Origin: a bacterium
GTDB lineage: Bacteria; Zhuqueibacterota; Zhuqueibacteria; Residuimicrobiales; Krinioviventaceae
Assembly (NCBI GenBank): GCA_963674595.2
Contig: CAXXFV010000014.1
Location: 1 to 64,000, forward strand
DNA length: 64,000 nucleotides
Direction: 5' to 3'
In this document: positions 18,786 to 29,272 of the stretch, one piece after another
Layout: each line of letters begins with the position of its first letter
How positions within the stretch are numbered: the first letter of the stretch is position 1
Made by a program: the position numbers and the translations under genes
Notes under the pieces: generated by a model
Seen by the model: the letters and a program-made list of their open reading frames with translations, nothing else
Databases searched by the model: none
Told to the model about the DNA's origin: nothing

Positions 18786-18813
18786 AAAAAAGGGGCTCAA
18801 AATTTGAGCCCCT
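18786..18813 (-). terminator. Rho-independent terminator after hpf
   Basis: GAGGGGCTCAAA-TTTTGAGCCCC-TTTTTT on the minus strand. Confidence 0.8.
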
Positions 18814-18852
18814 CAATATCGTTAAAATTGAAAATTAATTCAAGGTATATTT

Positions 18853-19170: not shown

Positions 19171-19243
19171 CGGAACCTCCTTTTAATACAAAGTAGGTTA
19201 ATGGTTCAAGTTAATTAAATATAATATAAAAGTAAAAAATTCA

Positions 19244-20191
19244 TCATCCTCTTTTGTCCGATGCTTTATCATCAGCACGAGGATGCGCCTGTTTATAGAC
19301 ACGTTTTAAATGTTCTGCAGATACATGTGTATAAATTTGTGTTGTAGTTAAATTCGAATGCCCCAACAGCTCTTTTACAGACATCAAATCTGCGCCTTCG
19401 TCCAACAAATGAGTAGCAAACGTATGTCTTAGCGTATGAGGATGGGCTTTTTCTTTTCCGGCAATCTTTTCTATATATTGTTTAACTAAAACGGCTATCT
19501 GCTGTCGTGTAAACGGCCTGTTATCTTTTTTAACAAATAAAAAATCGTCTTGTTCCGTTTTTTTTCGTTCAGCAATTTGTTTGGCAATAATATACTTTTT
19601 TAAATCATTTAGTACTCTAGTCCCGACAGGCACAATACGCTGCTTATTCCCCTTTCCCAAAATGCGTAACGTTCCTGCCTCAAAATTAATATTTTTGAGA
19701 CGTATACCGGACAATTCCGAAACACGAATCCCGGTTGCATAGAATAACTCTAGTATAATCAAATCGCGTAAACCTTCATATTTTTCTATATCAGGAAGCA
19801 GCAAAATATGTTCCACTTGTTCCTTGGCTAAAAAGTGTGGTAATTTACGCTCCAGCCTGGGACTGGCTATATTTAATACAGGATTATTATCAATAACCTG
19901 CTCACGTAATAAAAAACGGGAAAAGGAACGCAGGCTTGCCAATTTCCGTGCAATACTTTTGGAGGATACTTTATTCTTAACCAAAAGCGCCAGCCAGCCT
20001 CTGACGGTTGGTTTGTTGAAAAGATCAAATCCCGGTGATTCCAGTTTAAAACGTTCGGCAAGATAATCAGCAAACTGCATCAGGTCATTCTCATAGGCAG
20101 CAACAGTGTGAGTTGAACTTTTTTTAATCACCTGCAAATATCGTATAAACCTGGGGATCCAGGAATGAATATTATTTTCCGATCTATCCAT
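19244..20191 (-). CDS. xerC: Tyrosine recombinase XerC
   Basis: ARKLASLRSF, TGIRVSEL, GKGNKQR, HPHTLRHTFATHLL, LGH, TTQIYTH; position between topA-like gene and hpf. Confidence 0.92.
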   Translation of the reverse strand: MDRSENNIHSWIPRFIRYLQVIKKSSTHTVAAYENDLMQFADYLAERFKLESPGFDLFNKPTVRGWLALLVKNKVSSKSIARKLASLRSFSRFLLREQVIDNNPVLNIASPRLERKLPHFLAKEQVEHILLLPDIEKYEGLRDLIILELFYATGIRVSELSGIRLKNINFEAGTLRILGKGNKQRIVPVGTRVLNDLKKYIIAKQIAERKKTEQDDFLFVKKDNRPFTRQQIAVLVKQYIEKIAGKEKAHPHTLRHTFATHLLDEGADLMSVKELLGHSNLTTTQIYTHVSAEHLKRVYKQAHPRADDKASDKRG

Positions 20192-20198
20192 ATTCTCC

Positions 20199-22388
20199 TT
20201 AAAAGTGATGTTTATACTTGAGCGCCTGCAAATTCTCATCAAATTTAATATGACATTTATCACACAAAAATCCGTCGCGCATATCAGGCAAGGTAATTCG
20301 CAATAAATAAGAATTATCACATTTTGGGCAGGTAATATTTACAGGCCTTTTCCAAACAGAAAAATCACATTGCGGATAGGCGCTGCACCCGTAAAAAACC
20401 TTACCCTTTTTGGAAATTCTTTCTATAACCTGTCCGGAACAGTTGTCTCTCGGGCATTTCATTCCAATACTCAACGGCATTGAAAAACGGCAGGAGGGAT
20501 ACCCGGAACAGGCCCAAAATCGACCATACGGTCCTTTACGTACAATCATCGGCCTGTTACACTTGGGGCATGTTTGTTCCTGTTCCTTGAAATTATCTTC
20601 GGCTGAAAGGGTAAAAGAACAGGAAGCAGGATAATTTTCACAAGCCCAATATTGACCGTTAGGACCGCTCTTTAACACCATCTTACCCTGGCATAAAACA
20701 CAAATACGTGGTCTGCCTGCGGCATCGCCAAAGGTCTCCGGGCTATCCCAAAATTCTAAAAACCTGGTCCATACATTTGAAAAGCGTTTTTCAGTTGTGC
20801 ATTTTTCAAACAACTCTTCAAACTCGACAAACTTTTCAAAATTGAAAAAACGGGGAAAATTTTTCTGTAAATGATTATATGTTTTTCGTGCCAAATCCGT
20901 AGGTAATACTTTATTATCAATAAACTCGAAAAAATCTGTTTGATGACACATAACTGAAACAGAATAAGGATCCAACATGGAATTTAACGGACTTGCAGCG
21001 AGTTCGCCAAAAAGTTTTTCACAGGAATAATAAGAATCCTTGTCAACTTGTTCACTATGGGTATCGATGTTACTAATTTTAAAAACCTGGCCTTCTCTCA
21101 CGGTTTCCGGTATTGCGGCATTTTTCCTTTTCTTTTTTATTAGAGTATCGTAAACCTGGCAGAATCCTCTAAATAATTCCTTTTCTTCAAATGCTGAAAA
21201 AGTATATTTTTCGTCTTCACTTTGTAATTCTATTTCAATTTGTTCCTTAACAGCATCCTTCATTTGTGAAGCGATTGTGCGGTTCCAGATGAGTGTATAG
21301 ATACAATGCTGTTCCGGTGTTAAATGTTTACGTAATTTCTTTGGTGTAAGTTTGATATTGGCAGGATAAATAAACAACTGTAAACTTTTTTCACCATATT
21401 CTCTTTTTTGTTTTGGCAGATAGTCATTACCATAATCCTGAAAAATCAATTCCCGAATTTTCACGGCAATATCTTCAGAATCAAAAGTACCTGACACAAT
21501 GTTCAAAAGACTCTGTTTGCGCCCGGAAATGTCCACTCCGTCAAGTTCATGAACAAGGCATATAATTCTTGCCGGAGAAAACTTGTAAAGACGGCAGGCG
21601 TCAGAAACAAGTGATACCATCGTATAGGGAGGAAACGGGTGTGTGATCAGTTTTTTATTTTTAATTTTTGCTACTTTAAATTCCTGTTGTTTTAGGTCAA
21701 TTACCACCGCTTTTATATAATTAACATCAAAAATATTGGGCTTTCTTCCCTTTATTTTTGATAATCCCGCAAAAATTTTAGTTTTTTGTTGTGTTTTCAA
21801 ATCCCCGGTTAACTGCCATTTTTTACTATTCTTAACGGAATTGTTTTGTTCAAATTCACACAACTTGTACAAAACATGACTACATAATCTGTTCCACGAA
21901 TAATTCTTTGTAATATTATCTTTTAAAACTTTATTAAATGTTTCGGACAAATAATAATCAACAGCTCCGCTTATTATCGCCGCATTAAAAGGTTTTATCT
22001 TTATGGCTCTTTCAACGGATTGGGAAAATCCTTCACGAGTTACGGCATTCAAATATAACCGCTTTATTCTGCTGGATGGGCAGTTCTGTTCAATCAACTG
22101 ATGATATAAAGATAAAGTCAACAGTTCGCCCTGAAATGTATGCGGAAACGCAAGATAGATTTGTTTGTATAATTTTGGGACCAGATCGGGGTATGTATCT
22201 GATAAATTAAAACTAACTTTCAGCTTTGGCAGAAAATGATCAGACGACCGAACAAAATCATAGTTCTCCCCCAAATTATGACAAGAGATAACAGTGTACA
22301 ATTCGCCAAAAAAAGTTTCGAGATTCATTTTCTCAGCATCATTGTTAATGAAAATAAGAATTTGTCTTTTTTGCAATAGGCGACCCAA
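20199..22388 (-). CDS. Highly diverged DNA topoisomerase IA (TopA) homologue with four C-terminal Zn ribbons; catalytic motifs absent
   Basis: PFPPYT, DYGNDYLP, YTLIWNRTIASQM, FRGF, LPTDL and GPYGRFWACSGYPSC are colinear with TopA; smg-topA-xerC synteny. Confidence 0.8.
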   Translation of the reverse strand: MGRLLQKRQILIFINNDAEKMNLETFFGELYTVISCHNLGENYDFVRSSDHFLPKLKVSFNLSDTYPDLVPKLYKQIYLAFPHTFQGELLTLSLYHQLIEQNCPSSRIKRLYLNAVTREGFSQSVERAIKIKPFNAAIISGAVDYYLSETFNKVLKDNITKNYSWNRLCSHVLYKLCEFEQNNSVKNSKKWQLTGDLKTQQKTKIFAGLSKIKGRKPNIFDVNYIKAVVIDLKQQEFKVAKIKNKKLITHPFPPYTMVSLVSDACRLYKFSPARIICLVHELDGVDISGRKQSLLNIVSGTFDSEDIAVKIRELIFQDYGNDYLPKQKREYGEKSLQLFIYPANIKLTPKKLRKHLTPEQHCIYTLIWNRTIASQMKDAVKEQIEIELQSEDEKYTFSAFEEKELFRGFCQVYDTLIKKKRKNAAIPETVREGQVFKISNIDTHSEQVDKDSYYSCEKLFGELAASPLNSMLDPYSVSVMCHQTDFFEFIDNKVLPTDLARKTYNHLQKNFPRFFNFEKFVEFEELFEKCTTEKRFSNVWTRFLEFWDSPETFGDAAGRPRICVLCQGKMVLKSGPNGQYWACENYPASCSFTLSAEDNFKEQEQTCPKCNRPMIVRKGPYGRFWACSGYPSCRFSMPLSIGMKCPRDNCSGQVIERISKKGKVFYGCSAYPQCDFSVWKRPVNITCPKCDNSYLLRITLPDMRDGFLCDKCHIKFDENLQALKYKHHF

Positions 22389-22397
22389 ACGAAAAAA

Positions 22398-22868
22398 TTA
22401 ATGTTGGAATCGATTCGAGGAAGTAAACTGAAAATAACCGGTAGATGCACTGTCTTCAAACTCTAACATAACTGCAGCAATTAAATCCTGCATTTCTTCA
22501 ACATTCATTTCTTGTATTTGCAGATATTGTGCTCGTTCAATAATCCGCTCCATATCACTATCACTTAAAATCTCAAGTTCTCTCAGGTGAAACAAATAGC
22601 TAAAAGCTGTTGGTGAGATAACAGTTTGTTCTGTTTCATTTAATTGACGCCAAATTGGCTTTGGTATATTACTCAACGGGCTTTGTAATAACCTGTCAAC
22701 ACTTTCGCCATGGTCCATAAGCCATGACATTGCAGTTGATATTTCCTCGTCACTAAAACCTTGTTCACTTAATATATCAAATAATAATTGCAAATCTAAA
22801 TTCTCCAAAGAGCTGTCACGAATTTCACGCATAACATTTGATAAAATTTCTAGAATGCGTTTATTCAT
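22398..22868 (-). CDS. smg: Smg/DUF494 family protein
   Basis: LSEQGFSDEEISTAMSWL, RQLNETE, ERIIER; adjacent to the topA-like gene. Confidence 0.85.
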   Translation of the reverse strand: MNKRILEILSNVMREIRDSSLENLDLQLLFDILSEQGFSDEEISTAMSWLMDHGESVDRLLQSPLSNIPKPIWRQLNETEQTVISPTAFSYLFHLRELEILSDSDMERIIERAQYLQIQEMNVEEMQDLIAAVMLEFEDSASTGYFQFTSSNRFQH

Positions 22869-23002
22869 TTAAATATAATCTCCGTTCAATAGTCGACTCT
22901 TAATTCTTGTCGCTTTTCCAATTTATGAAAATAACAATCAAATGCAAGATAAACTTCCCAATGATTCTCGGAAAGTAATTTTTGATGGAGCGCTTCCCCT
23001 GA

Positions 23003-26000
23003 TCAGTTAGCGCGTCCGCAACAGTTTTTATATTTTTTACCGCTTCCGCAAGGGCAAGGATCGTTTCGTCCGACTTTTTTAGTCTTGACAATAGGAGCTG
23101 TTTTTCGCGGTTGAGTTCCTGCCTGAACCGGCGAAGCTTTACTTTGTTTTGCCCCCATAACCTGTTTAAAAACCTCAACCTGCGAGTGAGTCATATTGTA
23201 TTGTTGCGGTTCAACACGCCTTAATTGCTGCTCTTCTATTTCCCCACCGACATCAAACACTTTAAAGAGGGTACTAACAACATCCCTGTTAATGCTATCA
23301 ATGGTTTTGACAAACATTTTATAGGCTTCACTTTTATATTCAAGCAACGGATCTTTTTGTCCGTAACCTCGTAATCCGATACCTTCACGCAGTTCATCAA
23401 CACCACTCAAATGCTGACGCCAATTTTCATCAATTTTTTCCAGCACATAATAACGTTCATATCGGGTTGCAAGAGCAGAACCTATTTCATTTACCCGGTT
23501 TATATAAAGTTTTTTGGCCCATTCGCTTACCTCATCCAGGACAAGATTTGGGTCCAAGGCCTCATCACTTTCATCTCTGAGACGCGGGGCCTGACGAAAA
23601 ACGAGCCGGCAATCTGTTTCCAGACGATTTGCCATGTCAGGATCTAAAATTTTATCACTGTTCAAAACACTGCTTATAATGTTATAAATCGTTTCGTCAA
23701 TCATCATAAGAACAGAATCTCTAACAATTTCACTGCTTATTCGTTCCTGACGGAACCGTTCAACCCGGTCGGCATATACTTTATATAAATTGAGTCCCCA
23801 GGCTACCATTTGTTCGCGAAAGACAGCATAATCCTCATCTTTAGATCCACTTGGCAGGGCCTTGTCAGGTTTACTCAAAAACATAAAATCAAGCTGCTGG
23901 GAAAATAGTTTCTTTGTCTTTTCATCTGCCTTTGCATCTGTACTTTTGTTAACCAGTGCAATAATCGAAGCTTCTATCAATTCTTCAATTGTTGCATTCG
24001 CCAGCATAATATCGTTATAAACTTGAGAATATTTAGAAAACGTCTCAGAATAGGTCAAGCGGACCTGTTTCATTGTCTGGTTCTTTAAAGAATTTTCTGC
24101 TTCTGCTTCATCAATTGTGATATTAAACGGCTGTCCGAATACTTTTTCAAGGAAATCTTGCTGCTCTTTTATAAGTTGGTTGTTTTCTTGTTCATTAGGA
24201 GATCCCAATTCCTGAAAACAATGGTCAACAATAATATGAGCAAAGTTTATATTTGAAAAATATCCTAAAATCCGGTGCCTTATTTGATTTCCCTGTTCAA
24301 TATTTAAATGATCATTCATCCACTCCAAAACACGTTCACGAATGACCTCCCGTCGAATACTCTTTAATTCATTGCTGCCCAATGAAGGGACATCAAAAAA
24401 TATTCTTTCAATATCCTTTAAAAATTCATCGGTAGTCCAGGTAGCCGGCGAGCCTTTAGCATTCAAATGACGGTCCATTATTCCAGTCAGATAAATCCGG
24501 ATCATCTCTTTTATGTCCAGAGATTCAAATATAATTTTAGCTACAGAGTCAGTGCCATTTTCAACTTTATCAGAATAAACTTTTCTGCCCCAGGAGACAA
24601 TTTTTTCTTCCAAAGCATCAGCATCCGGAAGGTCTGTTTGGTTCATCAACCATTCCGGCCCAACACCTAAAATACGCTCAAATTCAAAAACAATACCTTC
24701 CAAATTCCATTTTGAGGTATCCCGGGAGCCGGCATTATGCAGTTTTATCTTTAATTTAATTAAAACGTCTAAAATATCATCAAGAGAGCAATAACCATAT
24801 ATACGATGCCGTTCCTGCATTTGATGCTGGTCTTTTTCCTGCTCAAGTTTACTTAAAACCCAATCCTGAATTTTTTCTTTAATTTCGCTCTGCTTTAAAG
24901 TTTGTAAATCTTCTAAAGTAAAATCAGGCTCAGCCCCAAAGAACTCTTTTAAATTTTCAATCAGTTCATCAAGTTTCCAATCGGTATGATCGTCCTCTTC
25001 TCCGAAAAATCGTTTTGTTTTTGATTCTACAAAATCTTCGGCCTGTGCGAACCCAAGCAGGTTCTGACGTCGTTTGTAAATAATTTTTCTCTGGTCATTT
25101 AAAACATTGTCATATTCCAGCAGATTTTTACGAATTTCAAAGTTACGTTCTTCAACCTTTTTTTGTGCTCGTTCAATAGACCGGGTAATCAGCGGATGTT
25201 CAATTCTTTCACCTTCTTGCATATCTCCAAGCCGGCTCATAACATTTGTAATACGGTCGGAACCAAACAGTCGCATTAAATCATCTTCTAATGACAAATA
25301 AAAACGTGAAGCACCCGGGTCACCCTGACGTCCGGCACGACCGCGAAGCTGACGGTCAATTCTTCGGGCCTCATGTTTTTCAGAACCTAATATTTGTAAA
25401 CCACCGTGTTTTATCACATCCGGAGTCAGTTTAATATCCGTACCACGACCGGCCATATTTGTAGCAATTGTAATTGAACCCGGCAAACCGGCTTTGGCTA
25501 CAATTTCAGCTTCGCTTTTATGATATTTGGCATTTAACACGGTGTGAAAACGACCGGATTCCAGTTCTTTGGTAACGTCACCTTTTTTCAACCAATTTGC
25601 CACCGGTATACCACGATGCGTAAATAAAGTACTTAGATGCTGAGAAACATCAACGGAAACCGTACCTATTAAAATGGGTAGCCCTTTTTCATGTAATTCC
25701 AATGCCTCATCAATAATAGCATCGTACTTTTCTTTTTTAGTACGATAGATAACATCATTATTGTCCTTACGGATAACAGGTTTGTTCGTTGGAATAACAA
25801 TTACTTCAAGTTCATATGTACTAAAAAACTCCTGCGATTCGGTTTCGGCAGTACCGGTCATACCGGCGAGTTTGTGATAAATTCGGAAAAAATTCTGCAG
25901 GGTAATGGTCGCCAGAGTCTGACTTTCAGACTGAACCTCAACTCCTTCTTTTGCTTCCAAAGCCTCATGTAAACCGTCGCTAAACCGGCGTCCCGGCATT

Positions 26001-29000
26001 AATCGACCGGTAAACTGATCAACAATCATAACGGCTTTGCGTCCGCGTGCCGTACCGGCGCGTCGCATTTCGCCTTCTTCTACTGCTTTAACAACATAAT
26101 CCACGTCGTTTTTATATAATGTATAGGCGCGAAGTAATTGACTTATATTTTGTACACGGTCTTCAACCTGCGAATAATCCTGCCAGAGTTTGTTACGCCG
26201 ACTTTCTAAAATAGCTCTGGGCTTTCTTTCAAAATGAATCCTGAACCAGTGCTCGATTTCTTCAGATGTCATTACAAAATTTTGAGCATGAGCATTGGCC
26301 AAAAGTTCATTCATTTCGCGTTCTTCAAGCATAATCCGTTTTGCACGGAGCTGTGCTTTGTCTTTCGGTAAAAGGGCATCAAGCTCCGAACGTGTGGACA
26401 CCTTTTTACTGGAAAAATGCAAAATATCATCGCGAAACGCTTTTAGTTCTTCATCATAACTGAAAAACGGAAGTCCATCAACCAGATACTGCCTGGCAGA
26501 GCTTAACAAACGTTTGGGAATTTGCTGTTCATCCAGTTCAAAAACAGAATCCGCATCAATATTAATATCATCCAAAAGTTTTACGAGTTGTTCCGTAACC
26601 TGAAAACGTTCATTTGCTGAACTGGTCAAACTTTTTATACCATTATTAGACAGTCCTTTAAATCTCAAATCACTGGAAGATTTCGCAGCCTGTCCGTTGC
26701 TGTCAAAATCTAAATAACGGCGTAAAAATCGTTGTTTCTCCTGGTCTGAAAATTCACTTCTTTTTATAGTTGAGAACAAACTCTTAAATACATTTTGTAA
26801 ACGTTCAACATCTTCAAAACGTCGGGATAAACTTGGTATATTATCATTATTAAAAGATGTTGCCAGATATTCATCCAGTTCGATTCTTAACTGGACTGAA
26901 TTTGCGTTCTCGTCAGCTTTATGGGTTTGCTGCCATTTCAGGATTTTTTCAGCCACACTCTTCAAGTTAAATCCCAAAAGTCTTTCTATTTCAGTATCAG
27001 CCAAACCAAGAATATTACCGTTTTCATCTAAATCAAATATTTGTTCAATTTCATTCGAATAACGTCCAAGGTCTTTATCAAGCAAAAGAACAATATCATT
27101 TACCTGCTGAGCAAAGTCCGACAAGAAATTATAACCCAGCTTTGAAAAGTCGAGCCGGTCTAAAGAGCCAACCTTTTCACGTTTGTAAAACAAAGGTTCC
27201 AGTTTTGATACATCTGTTTGTACATATTGATATATCTGAGAAATCTCTAATTGTAATTTTTCAGCAGCCTGAACACGGGCGGCATAATCAAAAGCAGATT
27301 GATTCAGGGTCCTGTCAAGTATCTGCTTTACTTGCCTATCCTGTTCTTCAACAAGGCTGCGGTCAGGTAAAATATAAATATCCGGATTTCCACCAAGTAA
27401 AGCAATTCTACCTTTTTCAGATATATGTTTTAAAACGGTGCCATTATCTGAAAATTCAAAGTATTCCTGGCGGCGGTCTTCTGTTATACTTTCAGATTGG
27501 GTTGTTTTCTTGTCATCAACAGACGAGCTGCCGGCTGTATCCAGCATGGATGCAATTTTTGAGATATAGGGAACAAGAAAGGGATCGCCCTTGCAAACCA
27601 TTGCAAACAAGGCAAGCTTGCCGCTTTCCGTCAAACCCGTTATAGCGCCTAATTGTTTTTCAACCTGGAAAAAAGTTTGAATAATTTCACGACGACGGTC
27701 CTGTTGCCCACGAGAAATCTGGCCTCCGGCATCAACATCGGCTATATTTTGGATGAGTTTTAATAAATTTTGCAGCTCACCGACAAATTGAGAAAAATCC
27801 TCAGATCCATCACTTTGTAAATATTTAGCACCACTCTCTGTCAGGTTGTTGACCATTCGGTCCATTCGTTTGGAAAAATTAAAATTTTCACGCCAGATTG
27901 AATTTTTATCCGTCCTTTTTTCCTGAACATCCTGAGAGATTTTAGTTTCCAAATTAGCAAAATGCTCAACAAATTTTTCAAGCTTTTCATAATCGTCTTT
28001 ACCCGGGCGTTTAGTAATTTGACAAAGCAGTAATTGCCCTTCAAAGGTAATGCCGTTACATAAACCCGATATGGGGTCAAGAGTAAAATATTGGGCCGGC
28101 TTTTTCTGTTCGCTTAAATCGTACAAGGCCTGATCAAGCTCATCCAGTTTTTGAATTTTTTCTGCAATATCCTGGTCACGTCCGCCTGATAAAAAGATAC
28201 GTCCTTTTTCAGTAATATCTAAAACATGGCTTTTTTCATCAATCGTATAATACAGTTCACCATCAACCTGACCCATGGTTTTATTGATTTCATGCTGCCC
28301 CAGAATTTTTTCAATCAGCTTTTTAACCCAAAACTCTGACGTTTGCAAGTCCAAAAGTTCCTGGTTTTTCGGATCACCACGTTGTGCCCGTAAAAGCATA
28401 AGACCGGCAAGTTCTTCGTCCTTTTCAAGTAAATCCTTACCTTCGCGGACAAATTGTTCCACAAGCTCTTTTTGTTTCGTGTAAAGATTGGAAACAATGG
28501 GTTTAAGTTCATAATAAATATTTCGTGGCGCACCAACAGCACCGGATATGATCAAAGGTGTTCGGGCTTCGTCGATAAGGACACTGTCTACTTCATCAAC
28601 AATTGCATAATGCAAAGGACGCTGAACAACAGACCATACATCTGTTGTCATATTGTCACGAAGATAGTCAAAACCAAACTCATTATTGGTCCCATAGGTA
28701 ATATCAGCCATATAGGCATGTTTTTTTTGTTCAGGGTCCAAATCACCGTAAAGTGCGGCGACTTTTAGGCCCAAAAACTCGTAAATTTTTCCCATCCACT
28801 CACAGTCACGTTGTGCCAAATAGTCATTCACGGTAATAAGGTGAACGCCTTTTCCTTCAAGTGCATTTAAATATAACGGCATTGTAGCGACCAGTGTTTT
28901 TCCTTCACCCGTTGCCATTTCTGCAATTTTTCCCTCATGCAAAACAATACCGCCGATAAGCTGGACATCATAAGGAATCATATTCCATTCAATTTCTTGT

Positions 29001-29272
29001 CCGCGTACCAACCATTTTTTGCCTAAAAGACGACGGCAGGTATCCTTAACAGCCGCAAAAGCCTCAGGTAATATATCGTCAAGCGTTTCGCCCATATTTA
29101 AACGATAGCGAAATTCATGGGTTTTGGCTTTTAATTCATCGTCAGTCAAGGATTTATATTTTTCAGCTATCTGATTAATATCTTCAACGATAGGACGAAT
29201 ACGTTTCAACTCACGTTCTGTGCTTGTCCCACCCATTATTTTGGAAAAAAACTGTTCTACTTTTTCTAACAT
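23003..29272 (-). CDS. secA: Preprotein translocase ATPase SecA, giant form (2089 aa)
   Basis: [65 protein letters not shown]; SEC-C motif [19 protein letters not shown]. Confidence 0.97.

Follow-up and report, generated by a model that had tools for sequence, protein, structure and literature searches.

What is a topoisomerase gene kept for when the residues that cut DNA have gone from its product? TopA is regarded as an essential housekeeping enzyme and a drug target, and the question is raised by a gene on the reverse strand of a 64,000-nucleotide (nt) stretch of DNA, hereafter the window, which comprises positions 1 to 64,000 of contig CAXXFV010000014.1 (GenBank assembly GCA_963674595.2) from a bacterium of the order Residuimicrobiales, phylum Zhuqueibacterota. 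The gene occupies the topA slot at 20199-22388, and we call it the relic; relatives inside and outside the window's order are termed in-order and out-of-order, contigs of the window's genome are labelled C8, C14 and C23, and the letters G, L, P and X stand for genomes, loci, proteins and sequencing runs. The interpretation that we favor, and consider probable, is that the relic is a catalytically dead TopA that was displaced by an acquired TopA of gammaproteobacterial type and has been retained for a non-catalytic role.

The relationship to TopA itself is not in doubt. The frame is uninterrupted, with no internal stop over 729 codons counted from the TTG, and BLASTP aligns it colinearly with an intact TopA over residues 11-699 (25% identity across 736 columns, E 7e-64), which bears out what a preliminary description of the window had proposed from the letters alone. 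The two candidate TTG starts are given in Table 1; the second suits the N-termini of the orthologues better, and it is there that the database protein P0002 (725 amino acids (aa), 98% identical to the relic) begins. Among Pfam families, the core fold Topoisom_bac (PF01131) is matched with 80.5 bits (cut-off 35.1) and Zn_ribbon_Top1 (PF01396) with 104.6 bits in three stretches, the fourth ribbon being recognizable by its C4 pattern; no Pfam match to Toprim (PF01751) was found in the relic. The NCBIfam model TIGR01051 (topA_bact) gives the relic 180.3 bits, below the equivalog cut-off of 456.4, compared with 796.6 bits for a second TopA of the same genome, encoded on C8, and 820.7 bits for the native out-of-order orthologue L030.

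The residues that have been lost are those of the active site. In the alignments, the Toprim motif VVVESPAKA reads IFINNDAEK in the relic, with N15 in the Glu column, and the acidic cluster AADPDREGE reads AFPHTFQGE (nt 22125-22151), with P82, T84 and Q86 in place of D, D and E; both the Toprim Glu and the DxDxE of the Mg2+ site are therefore missing. LSAGRVQ has become YSWNRLC, HEAIRP has become QLFIYP, and GIGRPSTY has become PLNSMLDPY. The segment GLITYMRTDS is replaced by residues 293-304, SLLNIVSGTFDS, where the Tyr column holds I297 by phmmer or S299 by MAFFT and the Arg column S299 or T301, depending on the alignment; no Tyr at all occurs in residues 269-318, and the nucleophilic Tyr and the adjacent Arg are both absent. 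The active site of E. coli TopA consists of D111, D113, Y319 and R321 (PMC4678816), and the alignments show no equivalent of any of the four in the relic. All the motif substitutions listed in the preliminary description were thus confirmed, and its placement of the acidic cluster near 22140 and of the Tyr segment near 21500 was correct. Because the relic lacks the Toprim Glu, the acidic cluster, the Tyr and Arg pair and the HEAIRP residues, it would, judging from its sequence, be incapable of cleaving and religating DNA by canonical type IA chemistry; homology and the loss of catalytic residues together mark it as a putatively inactive homologue of the enzyme.

Other parts of the protein have been kept. 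The relic retains the helix YTLIWNRTIASQM and all 16 Cys of its four ribbons, which are invariant in 11/11 family members, in agreement with the earlier remark that four C4 zinc ribbons are well preserved. An AlphaFold2 (AF2) model, whose input alignment contained true TopAs, reached a mean predicted local distance difference test score (pLDDT) of 82.4 and a predicted template modeling score (pTM) of 0.67, and the top Foldseek matches of this model are E. coli TopA structures (4rul with E 8e-39; 67-kDa fragments with template modeling (TM) scores of 0.76-0.82 and root-mean-square deviations of 4-6 Å). By prediction, then, the relic is a folded TopA-like protein.

Table 1. Coordinates in the window of the relic, its parts and its neighbors
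Feature	Position	Strand	Remarks
Degenerate TopA-like ORF (open reading frame; the relic)	20199..22388	-	start TTG 22388 (729 aa) or TTG 22376 (725 aa); stop TAA 20199-20201
Degenerate Toprim-like domain 1, residues 1-135	21984..22388	-	alignments; AF2 beta-alpha pattern, pLDDT 57-92
Domain 3, residues 251-375, best-kept part of the core	21264..21638	-	includes the former Tyr loop, SLLNIVSGTFDS, 21477-21512
LQLFIYP in domain 3	21363-21383	-	in place of the HEAIRP region
Kept helix YTLIWNRTIASQM in domain 3	21261-21299	-	alignment
PLNSMLDPY, replacing GIGRPSTY (domain 4 motif of the single-stranded DNA groove)	20964..20990	-	alignment
Four C4 zinc ribbons	20253..20702	-	Cys 563/566/583/590, 607/610/627/633, 645/650/668/674, 687/690/709/712
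smg (DUF494), 156 aa	22398..22868	-	Pfam PF04361, 50.4 bits; stop 9 nt before TTG 22388; syntenic in all examined loci that reach it
xerC-like tyrosine recombinase	19244..20191	-	Pfam PF00589 and PF02899; likely ATG 20191, 7 nt after the relic stop
Terminator-like hairpin after hpf	18790..18814	-	11 pairs and a T run; consensus scan only

The position of the gene identifies its ancestry. The order secA-smg-X-xerC-hpf, where X is the topA slot, was found in 12/12 in-order loci and likewise in the 21 out-of-order loci of the motif table, which represent further orders and classes of the phylum (smg was unmatched in two of these and secA was not reached in four). By its position, the relic is orthologous to the topA native to the phylum. 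The orthology is based on synteny, since with long branches and no root the tree could not be used to place the degenerate clade within the native one. All 21 out-of-order positional orthologues have six perfect motifs (VIVES.AKT, ATDPDREGE, LSAGRVQS/T, GLITYMRTDS, DAHEA[IV]RPT and [GAD]IGRPSTY[AS]), and all 13 in-order orthologues are degenerate, each with its frame open. Within these 13 the Arg of YMRTDS, the His of HEAIRP and the GRP of GIGRPSTY are retained in none, both Asp in one, the Glu in six, the Tyr in five and the Arg of AIRP in ten; L010 alone retains the Glu, both Asp and the Tyr, and the relic of the window is among the most eroded copies. With the native TopA of the phylum, a protein of about 750 aa, the relic therefore shares the smg-topA-xerC locus, the domain order, the length and the four C4 ribbons, at 25-30% identity and with a fold predicted to match the E. 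coli structures. Unlike it, the relic has had all its catalytic motifs and those of the single-stranded DNA (ssDNA) groove replaced, lacks a Toprim match, scores below the TIGR01051 cut-off and evolves about 10-fold faster.

If the relic cannot relax DNA, another gene should do so, as the preliminary description had supposed, and a search of the window's genome for an intact topA found one. The genome has three matches to the type IA core, namely the relic, the C8 TopA and a gene on C23. The C8 TopA (867 aa) has every motif intact, and because of this it is, on the evidence of its residues, most likely the supplier of DNA relaxation in this organism. It belongs, as the relic does, to the type IA family, but differs from it in its intact motifs, its locus and its C-terminal PF08272 and PF21372 domains, and the two are only 20% identical in the MAFFT alignment. 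Full-length in-order orthologues of the C8 TopA are 64-71% identical to it, and 36 of the 40 in-order relatives were matched at E<=1e-20. It is also 61-62% identical to the TopAs of Pseudomonas, Aliagarivorans and Gayadomonas, with which it forms a clade with support of 100 in a quick, unrooted IQ-TREE analysis of 49 rows. Several of its orthologues are labelled candidate division KSB1, a name borne also by the one named relative, a metagenome-assembled genome (MAG), on which we base the assignment of the phylum to that division. In a block of hits where all other names are KSB1 stands P0063, a TopA 69% identical to the C8 protein from a MAG labelled 'Actinobacteria bacterium'; mis-binning of the contig or a further transfer may account for it.

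The profile of the degenerate clade was also run against 93 out-of-order genomes, one of them (G115) unpublished, and matched once in 85, not at all in three and more than once in five. In four of these last five, the matches look like pieces of a single gene divided between contigs or frames; the fifth, G055, from the same class as the window, is the only one of the 93 with two separate TopA-like genes, in frames of 774 and 641 aa.

The third TopA, on C23 (747 aa, intact), was considered as a functional partner and set aside on account of its lack of orthologues, odd GC content and deltaproteobacterial grouping. No orthologue was found in the 40 relatives, its best matches (46-51%) are all of the E. 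coli type, and in the tree it groups with a TopA from a Deltaproteobacteria MAG. It lies in the last ~250 kb (about 700-950 kb, the L001/L052 region) of a 950-kb contig, where GC is 0.43-0.59 as against 0.37-0.41 in the remainder. The most probable origins of this high-GC end are a chimeric join, contamination or a large island of recent date, in keeping with the genome's estimated contamination of about 5%.

Is the relic, once freed of catalysis, still under selection? In the tree the 13 degenerate rows stand together on one side of a branch with support of 97, and their end branches are 1.2-3.6 changes per column long, where the median is 0.3 (3.34 for the relic, an acceleration of about 10-fold); across loci where the relic is 28-33% identical, the neighboring proteins are 47-79% identical. 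Fast change is not the same as neutral change, and ratios of non-synonymous to synonymous substitution rates (dN/dS, with dS the synonymous rate; NG86 method) from close pairs of loci show the difference. For L016 and L018 the ratio of the relic is 0.115 at a dS of 0.58 (neighbors 0.016-0.078), and for L012 and L020 it is 0.224 at a dS of 1.14 (neighbors 0.040-0.046); domain by domain it ranges from 0.06 to 0.33, the dead Toprim included. Three pairs of shorter, Toprim-less forms of 479-481 aa gave 0.20-0.26 at a dS of 0.36-0.42. Moreover, stop-creating changes make up 5.6% of single-base changes in the relic frame, and the probability that it would still be open after 0.1 neutral substitutions per site is ~4e-6.

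The same was seen between populations, for which we used contigs from four sequencing runs, belonging to four other studies, that cover positions 19200-23000. The region is spanned without gaps by an X5 contig with 32 differences and an X10 contig with 65, and in pieces by two further runs; the X5 counts below rest on 31 of the 32 differences, and 30 further variants, mostly from X10, are outside the tally. Within the relic, the 24 listed X5 differences comprise 14 synonymous and 10 non-synonymous changes, with no indel and no stop; with 438 synonymous and 1749 non-synonymous sites, the corresponding polymorphism ratio (pN/pS) is ~0.18 (P = 4e-5 in a binomial test, the neutral expectation being 0.8). 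The ten amino-acid replacements are identical to those of P0002, and in residues 560-729, the zinc ribbons, there are three synonymous differences and no non-synonymous one. One X4 contig lacks a single base at 21404, a position 21 bases from the contig end, and a second X4 contig that spans it has the base; we treated the deletion as an assembly end error. Thus, the relic evolves fast and yet under purifying selection. The preliminary description would have been overturned by intact orthologues and a neutrally evolving copy; instead, the clade keeps degenerate but open frames, with dN/dS of 0.12-0.26 in five close pairs.

Comparing the alignment columns of the two groups hints at what is being kept. 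The 21 native proteins share 291 columns with conservation of 95% or more, of which 127 are kept in at most 25% of the degenerate ones. Ninety-seven columns are at least 75% conserved with the same residue in both groups, and most of these belong to the ribbons or to domain 3 (residues 251-376). Mean pairwise identity in domains 1 and 4 is 0.21-0.29 among the degenerate proteins against 0.63-0.86 among the natives, in domain 3 it is 0.43 against 0.74, and in ribbons 2-4 it is 0.53 against 0.64. Clade-specific columns, conserved in the degenerate proteins with a residue rare in the natives, number only six, too few to be taken as the sign of a new function. This pattern, together with the paucity of clade-specific columns, therefore argues for partial retention of the old protein rather than for an invented new surface.

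The relatives furnish a series of stages in this process. Among the 40 in-order relatives, 27 have a degenerate homologue, 12 have only the E. coli-type enzyme and one, 78% complete, has neither. In one genus the degenerate protein is reduced to forms of 479-485 aa, which begin near residue 170, have neither the Toprim half nor any of the motifs, and carry 12-15 Cys in their last 170 residues; other genera have forms of 511, 540 and 572 aa. Over the whole order, the slot is occupied by a full-length gene, by a Toprim-less one (479-572 aa) or by none. When the clade profile was run against a library with 1.84 billion cluster representatives (50% identity), the 17 best matches were all degenerate. 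With three short fragments of intact enzymes set aside, 28 of the best 150 library matches keep at most five of nine catalytic positions, and two more keep seven. One TopA in the library, P0219, looks intact in other respects, with seven of the nine positions, but reads GLITFMRSDS and so has a Phe in the catalytic Tyr column.

From these findings a history can be put forth. An ancestor of the window's order would have acquired a gammaproteobacterial-type TopA horizontally, and the native topA would thereby have lost its job. With the catalytic constraint gone, the Toprim Glu, the acidic cluster, the Tyr and Arg, the His, Glu and Arg of HEAIRP and the motifs of the ssDNA groove could have been lost, the gene being retained for an ancestral sub-function, namely binding to ssDNA, RNA polymerase or both through the four invariant C4 ribbons, for which domains 3 and 2 may serve as the scaffold. 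We propose the ribbons as the binding module because of the conservation pattern and the known properties of the C-terminal domain of TopA: in E. coli, its zinc ribbons bind ssDNA through aromatic stacking and contact the beta' subunit of RNA polymerase (PMC4678816). Expression of the relic would be from an operon-like unit that also includes smg, xerC and hpf. The hairpin after hpf is the sole strong terminator-like one downstream of smg in a consensus scan, which suggests a single smg-relic-xerC-hpf transcription unit, and the tight spacing on both sides of the relic (gaps of 9 nt to smg and 7 nt to xerC), together with the hairpin, supports co-expression.

A partial precedent exists in E. 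coli YrdD, a protein of about 180 aa that is not known to have a topoisomerase core. Consisting only of ribbons, YrdD binds ssDNA (PMC4678816). Like the relic, it is a non-catalytic relative of TopA with TopA-type zinc ribbons; unlike YrdD, the relic is not ribbons alone but has the full core of domains 1-4, and by position it is a topA orthologue, whereas YrdD is encoded by a small gene of its own. As to how the core is used, the preliminary description had envisaged a pseudoenzyme kept as a toroid that binds ssDNA or protein. The pseudoenzyme part of that suggestion stands, the catalytic residues being gone and purifying selection being present; the toroid part found no support, as SAGRVQ and GIGRPSTY are lost in 13/13, other families drop the Toprim half, and what is kept is domain 3 and ribbons 2-4. 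A more specific version, possible but rather doubtful, is that the relic is an inert pseudo-topoisomerase that docks on RNA polymerase or unwound DNA through its ribbons and regulates or senses supercoiling and R-loops, e.g., by positioning the acquired TopA or competing with it. If this were so, the order would be a natural experiment separating the structural from the enzymatic roles of topoisomerase I.

Several observations weigh against retention for a role after displacement. The direction of transfer was inferred from an unrooted tree. Three relatives, G003 (96% complete), G014 (90%) and G007 (73%), have only the degenerate PF01131 gene, with no intact TopA detected. All three genomes are in several contigs, and the C8-type gene does occur in congeners of G003; either the intact TopA was left unassembled or our picture is incomplete. 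In 4/4 checked genomes of genera without the relic, smg adjoins xerC directly, leaving an empty slot, and since 12 of the 40 relatives have only the E. coli-type enzyme, the relic must be dispensable. In the close pairs, its dN/dS is 2-10 times that of neighboring genes; five of the ten X5 replacements (A80V, H83P, Q86K, R290C and I297T) fall in former active-site loops; and the evidence for selection on the relic itself consists of 24 differences, a small count from contigs of low depth (2-5). Dispensability, variable active-site loops, truncated forms and a 10-fold acceleration would all be expected of a functionless gene that is decaying slowly after displacement, its frame a mere remnant or kept open for the sake of xerC and hpf expression downstream. 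We nevertheless think such decay unlikely. A remnant would hardly show dN/dS of 0.12-0.26 in five close pairs, with low values in every domain, or a frame open in 13/13 with 16 invariant Cys, given a probability below 1e-5 of escaping a stop after only 0.1 neutral substitutions per site. Selection for polarity or translational coupling would in turn spare synonymous and non-synonymous changes alike, whereas the relic has 14 of the former against 10 of the latter (P = 4e-5).

The relic could also have been recruited to a new job with its operon partners, e.g., Smg (DUF494) or XerC. The close spacing to both genes and the phylum-wide synteny are compatible with this, and in Neisseria dprA, smg and topA are co-transcribed, smg being described there as without known function (PMC5817196). 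However, the adjacency is ancestral and equally true of intact TopAs, and therefore is not the mark of a new role; smg and xerC are retained in genomes that have lost the relic, and there are only six clade-specific columns. A complex prediction for the relic and Smg, both entered as alignments, scored 0.00 (mark 0.32) and is no evidence either way. We regard this recruitment as quite improbable. Even less can be said for a topoisomerase still working with a non-canonical active site, which we hold to be highly improbable: the toroid fold is predicted, the Tyr survives in 5/13 orthologues, L010 has the Glu, both Asp and the Tyr, and G003, G014 and G007 show no other topoisomerase IA domain, but the relic itself has no Tyr in residues 269-318, none of the catalytic acidic residues, no Arg by the Tyr column and no His, Glu or Arg of HEAIRP, and it scores 180 against 456 for TIGR01051. 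There is finally the prospect that the relic is chimeric, mis-assembled or foreign, in a genome of 37 contigs with 5.06% estimated contamination and a chimeric-looking C23. We tested and rejected it, and give it a negligible probability, as C14 matches the composition of the genome (GC 0.389, tetranucleotide correlation 0.998), the stretch recurs without gaps in X5 and X10, from two other studies, and in pieces in two more runs, P0002 is 98% identical, and the synteny is that of the relatives.

The most parsimonious interpretation would thus be that a native topA was displaced by a foreign copy and lost its chemistry, and has yet been kept by selection in many lineages, while sister lineages show truncated and deleted end states. 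A full-text literature search, with supplements outside its scope, found no published account of a type IA topoisomerase that is catalytically dead, nor of a TopA from KSB1. The series separates the enzymatic work of TopA from the roles that domain 3 and the zinc ribbons may have in binding. There is a practical consequence too: annotation pipelines call such genes 'type I DNA topoisomerase', and surveys of gene content would therefore miscount functional TopAs.

One further feature of the locus concerns secA, which lies upstream of smg at 23003-29272 on the reverse strand. It encodes 2089 aa, more than twice the usual length of SecA, and its last 400 aa show 47-71% identity in in-order relatives and, where the loci reach that far, 34-49% in out-of-order ones.

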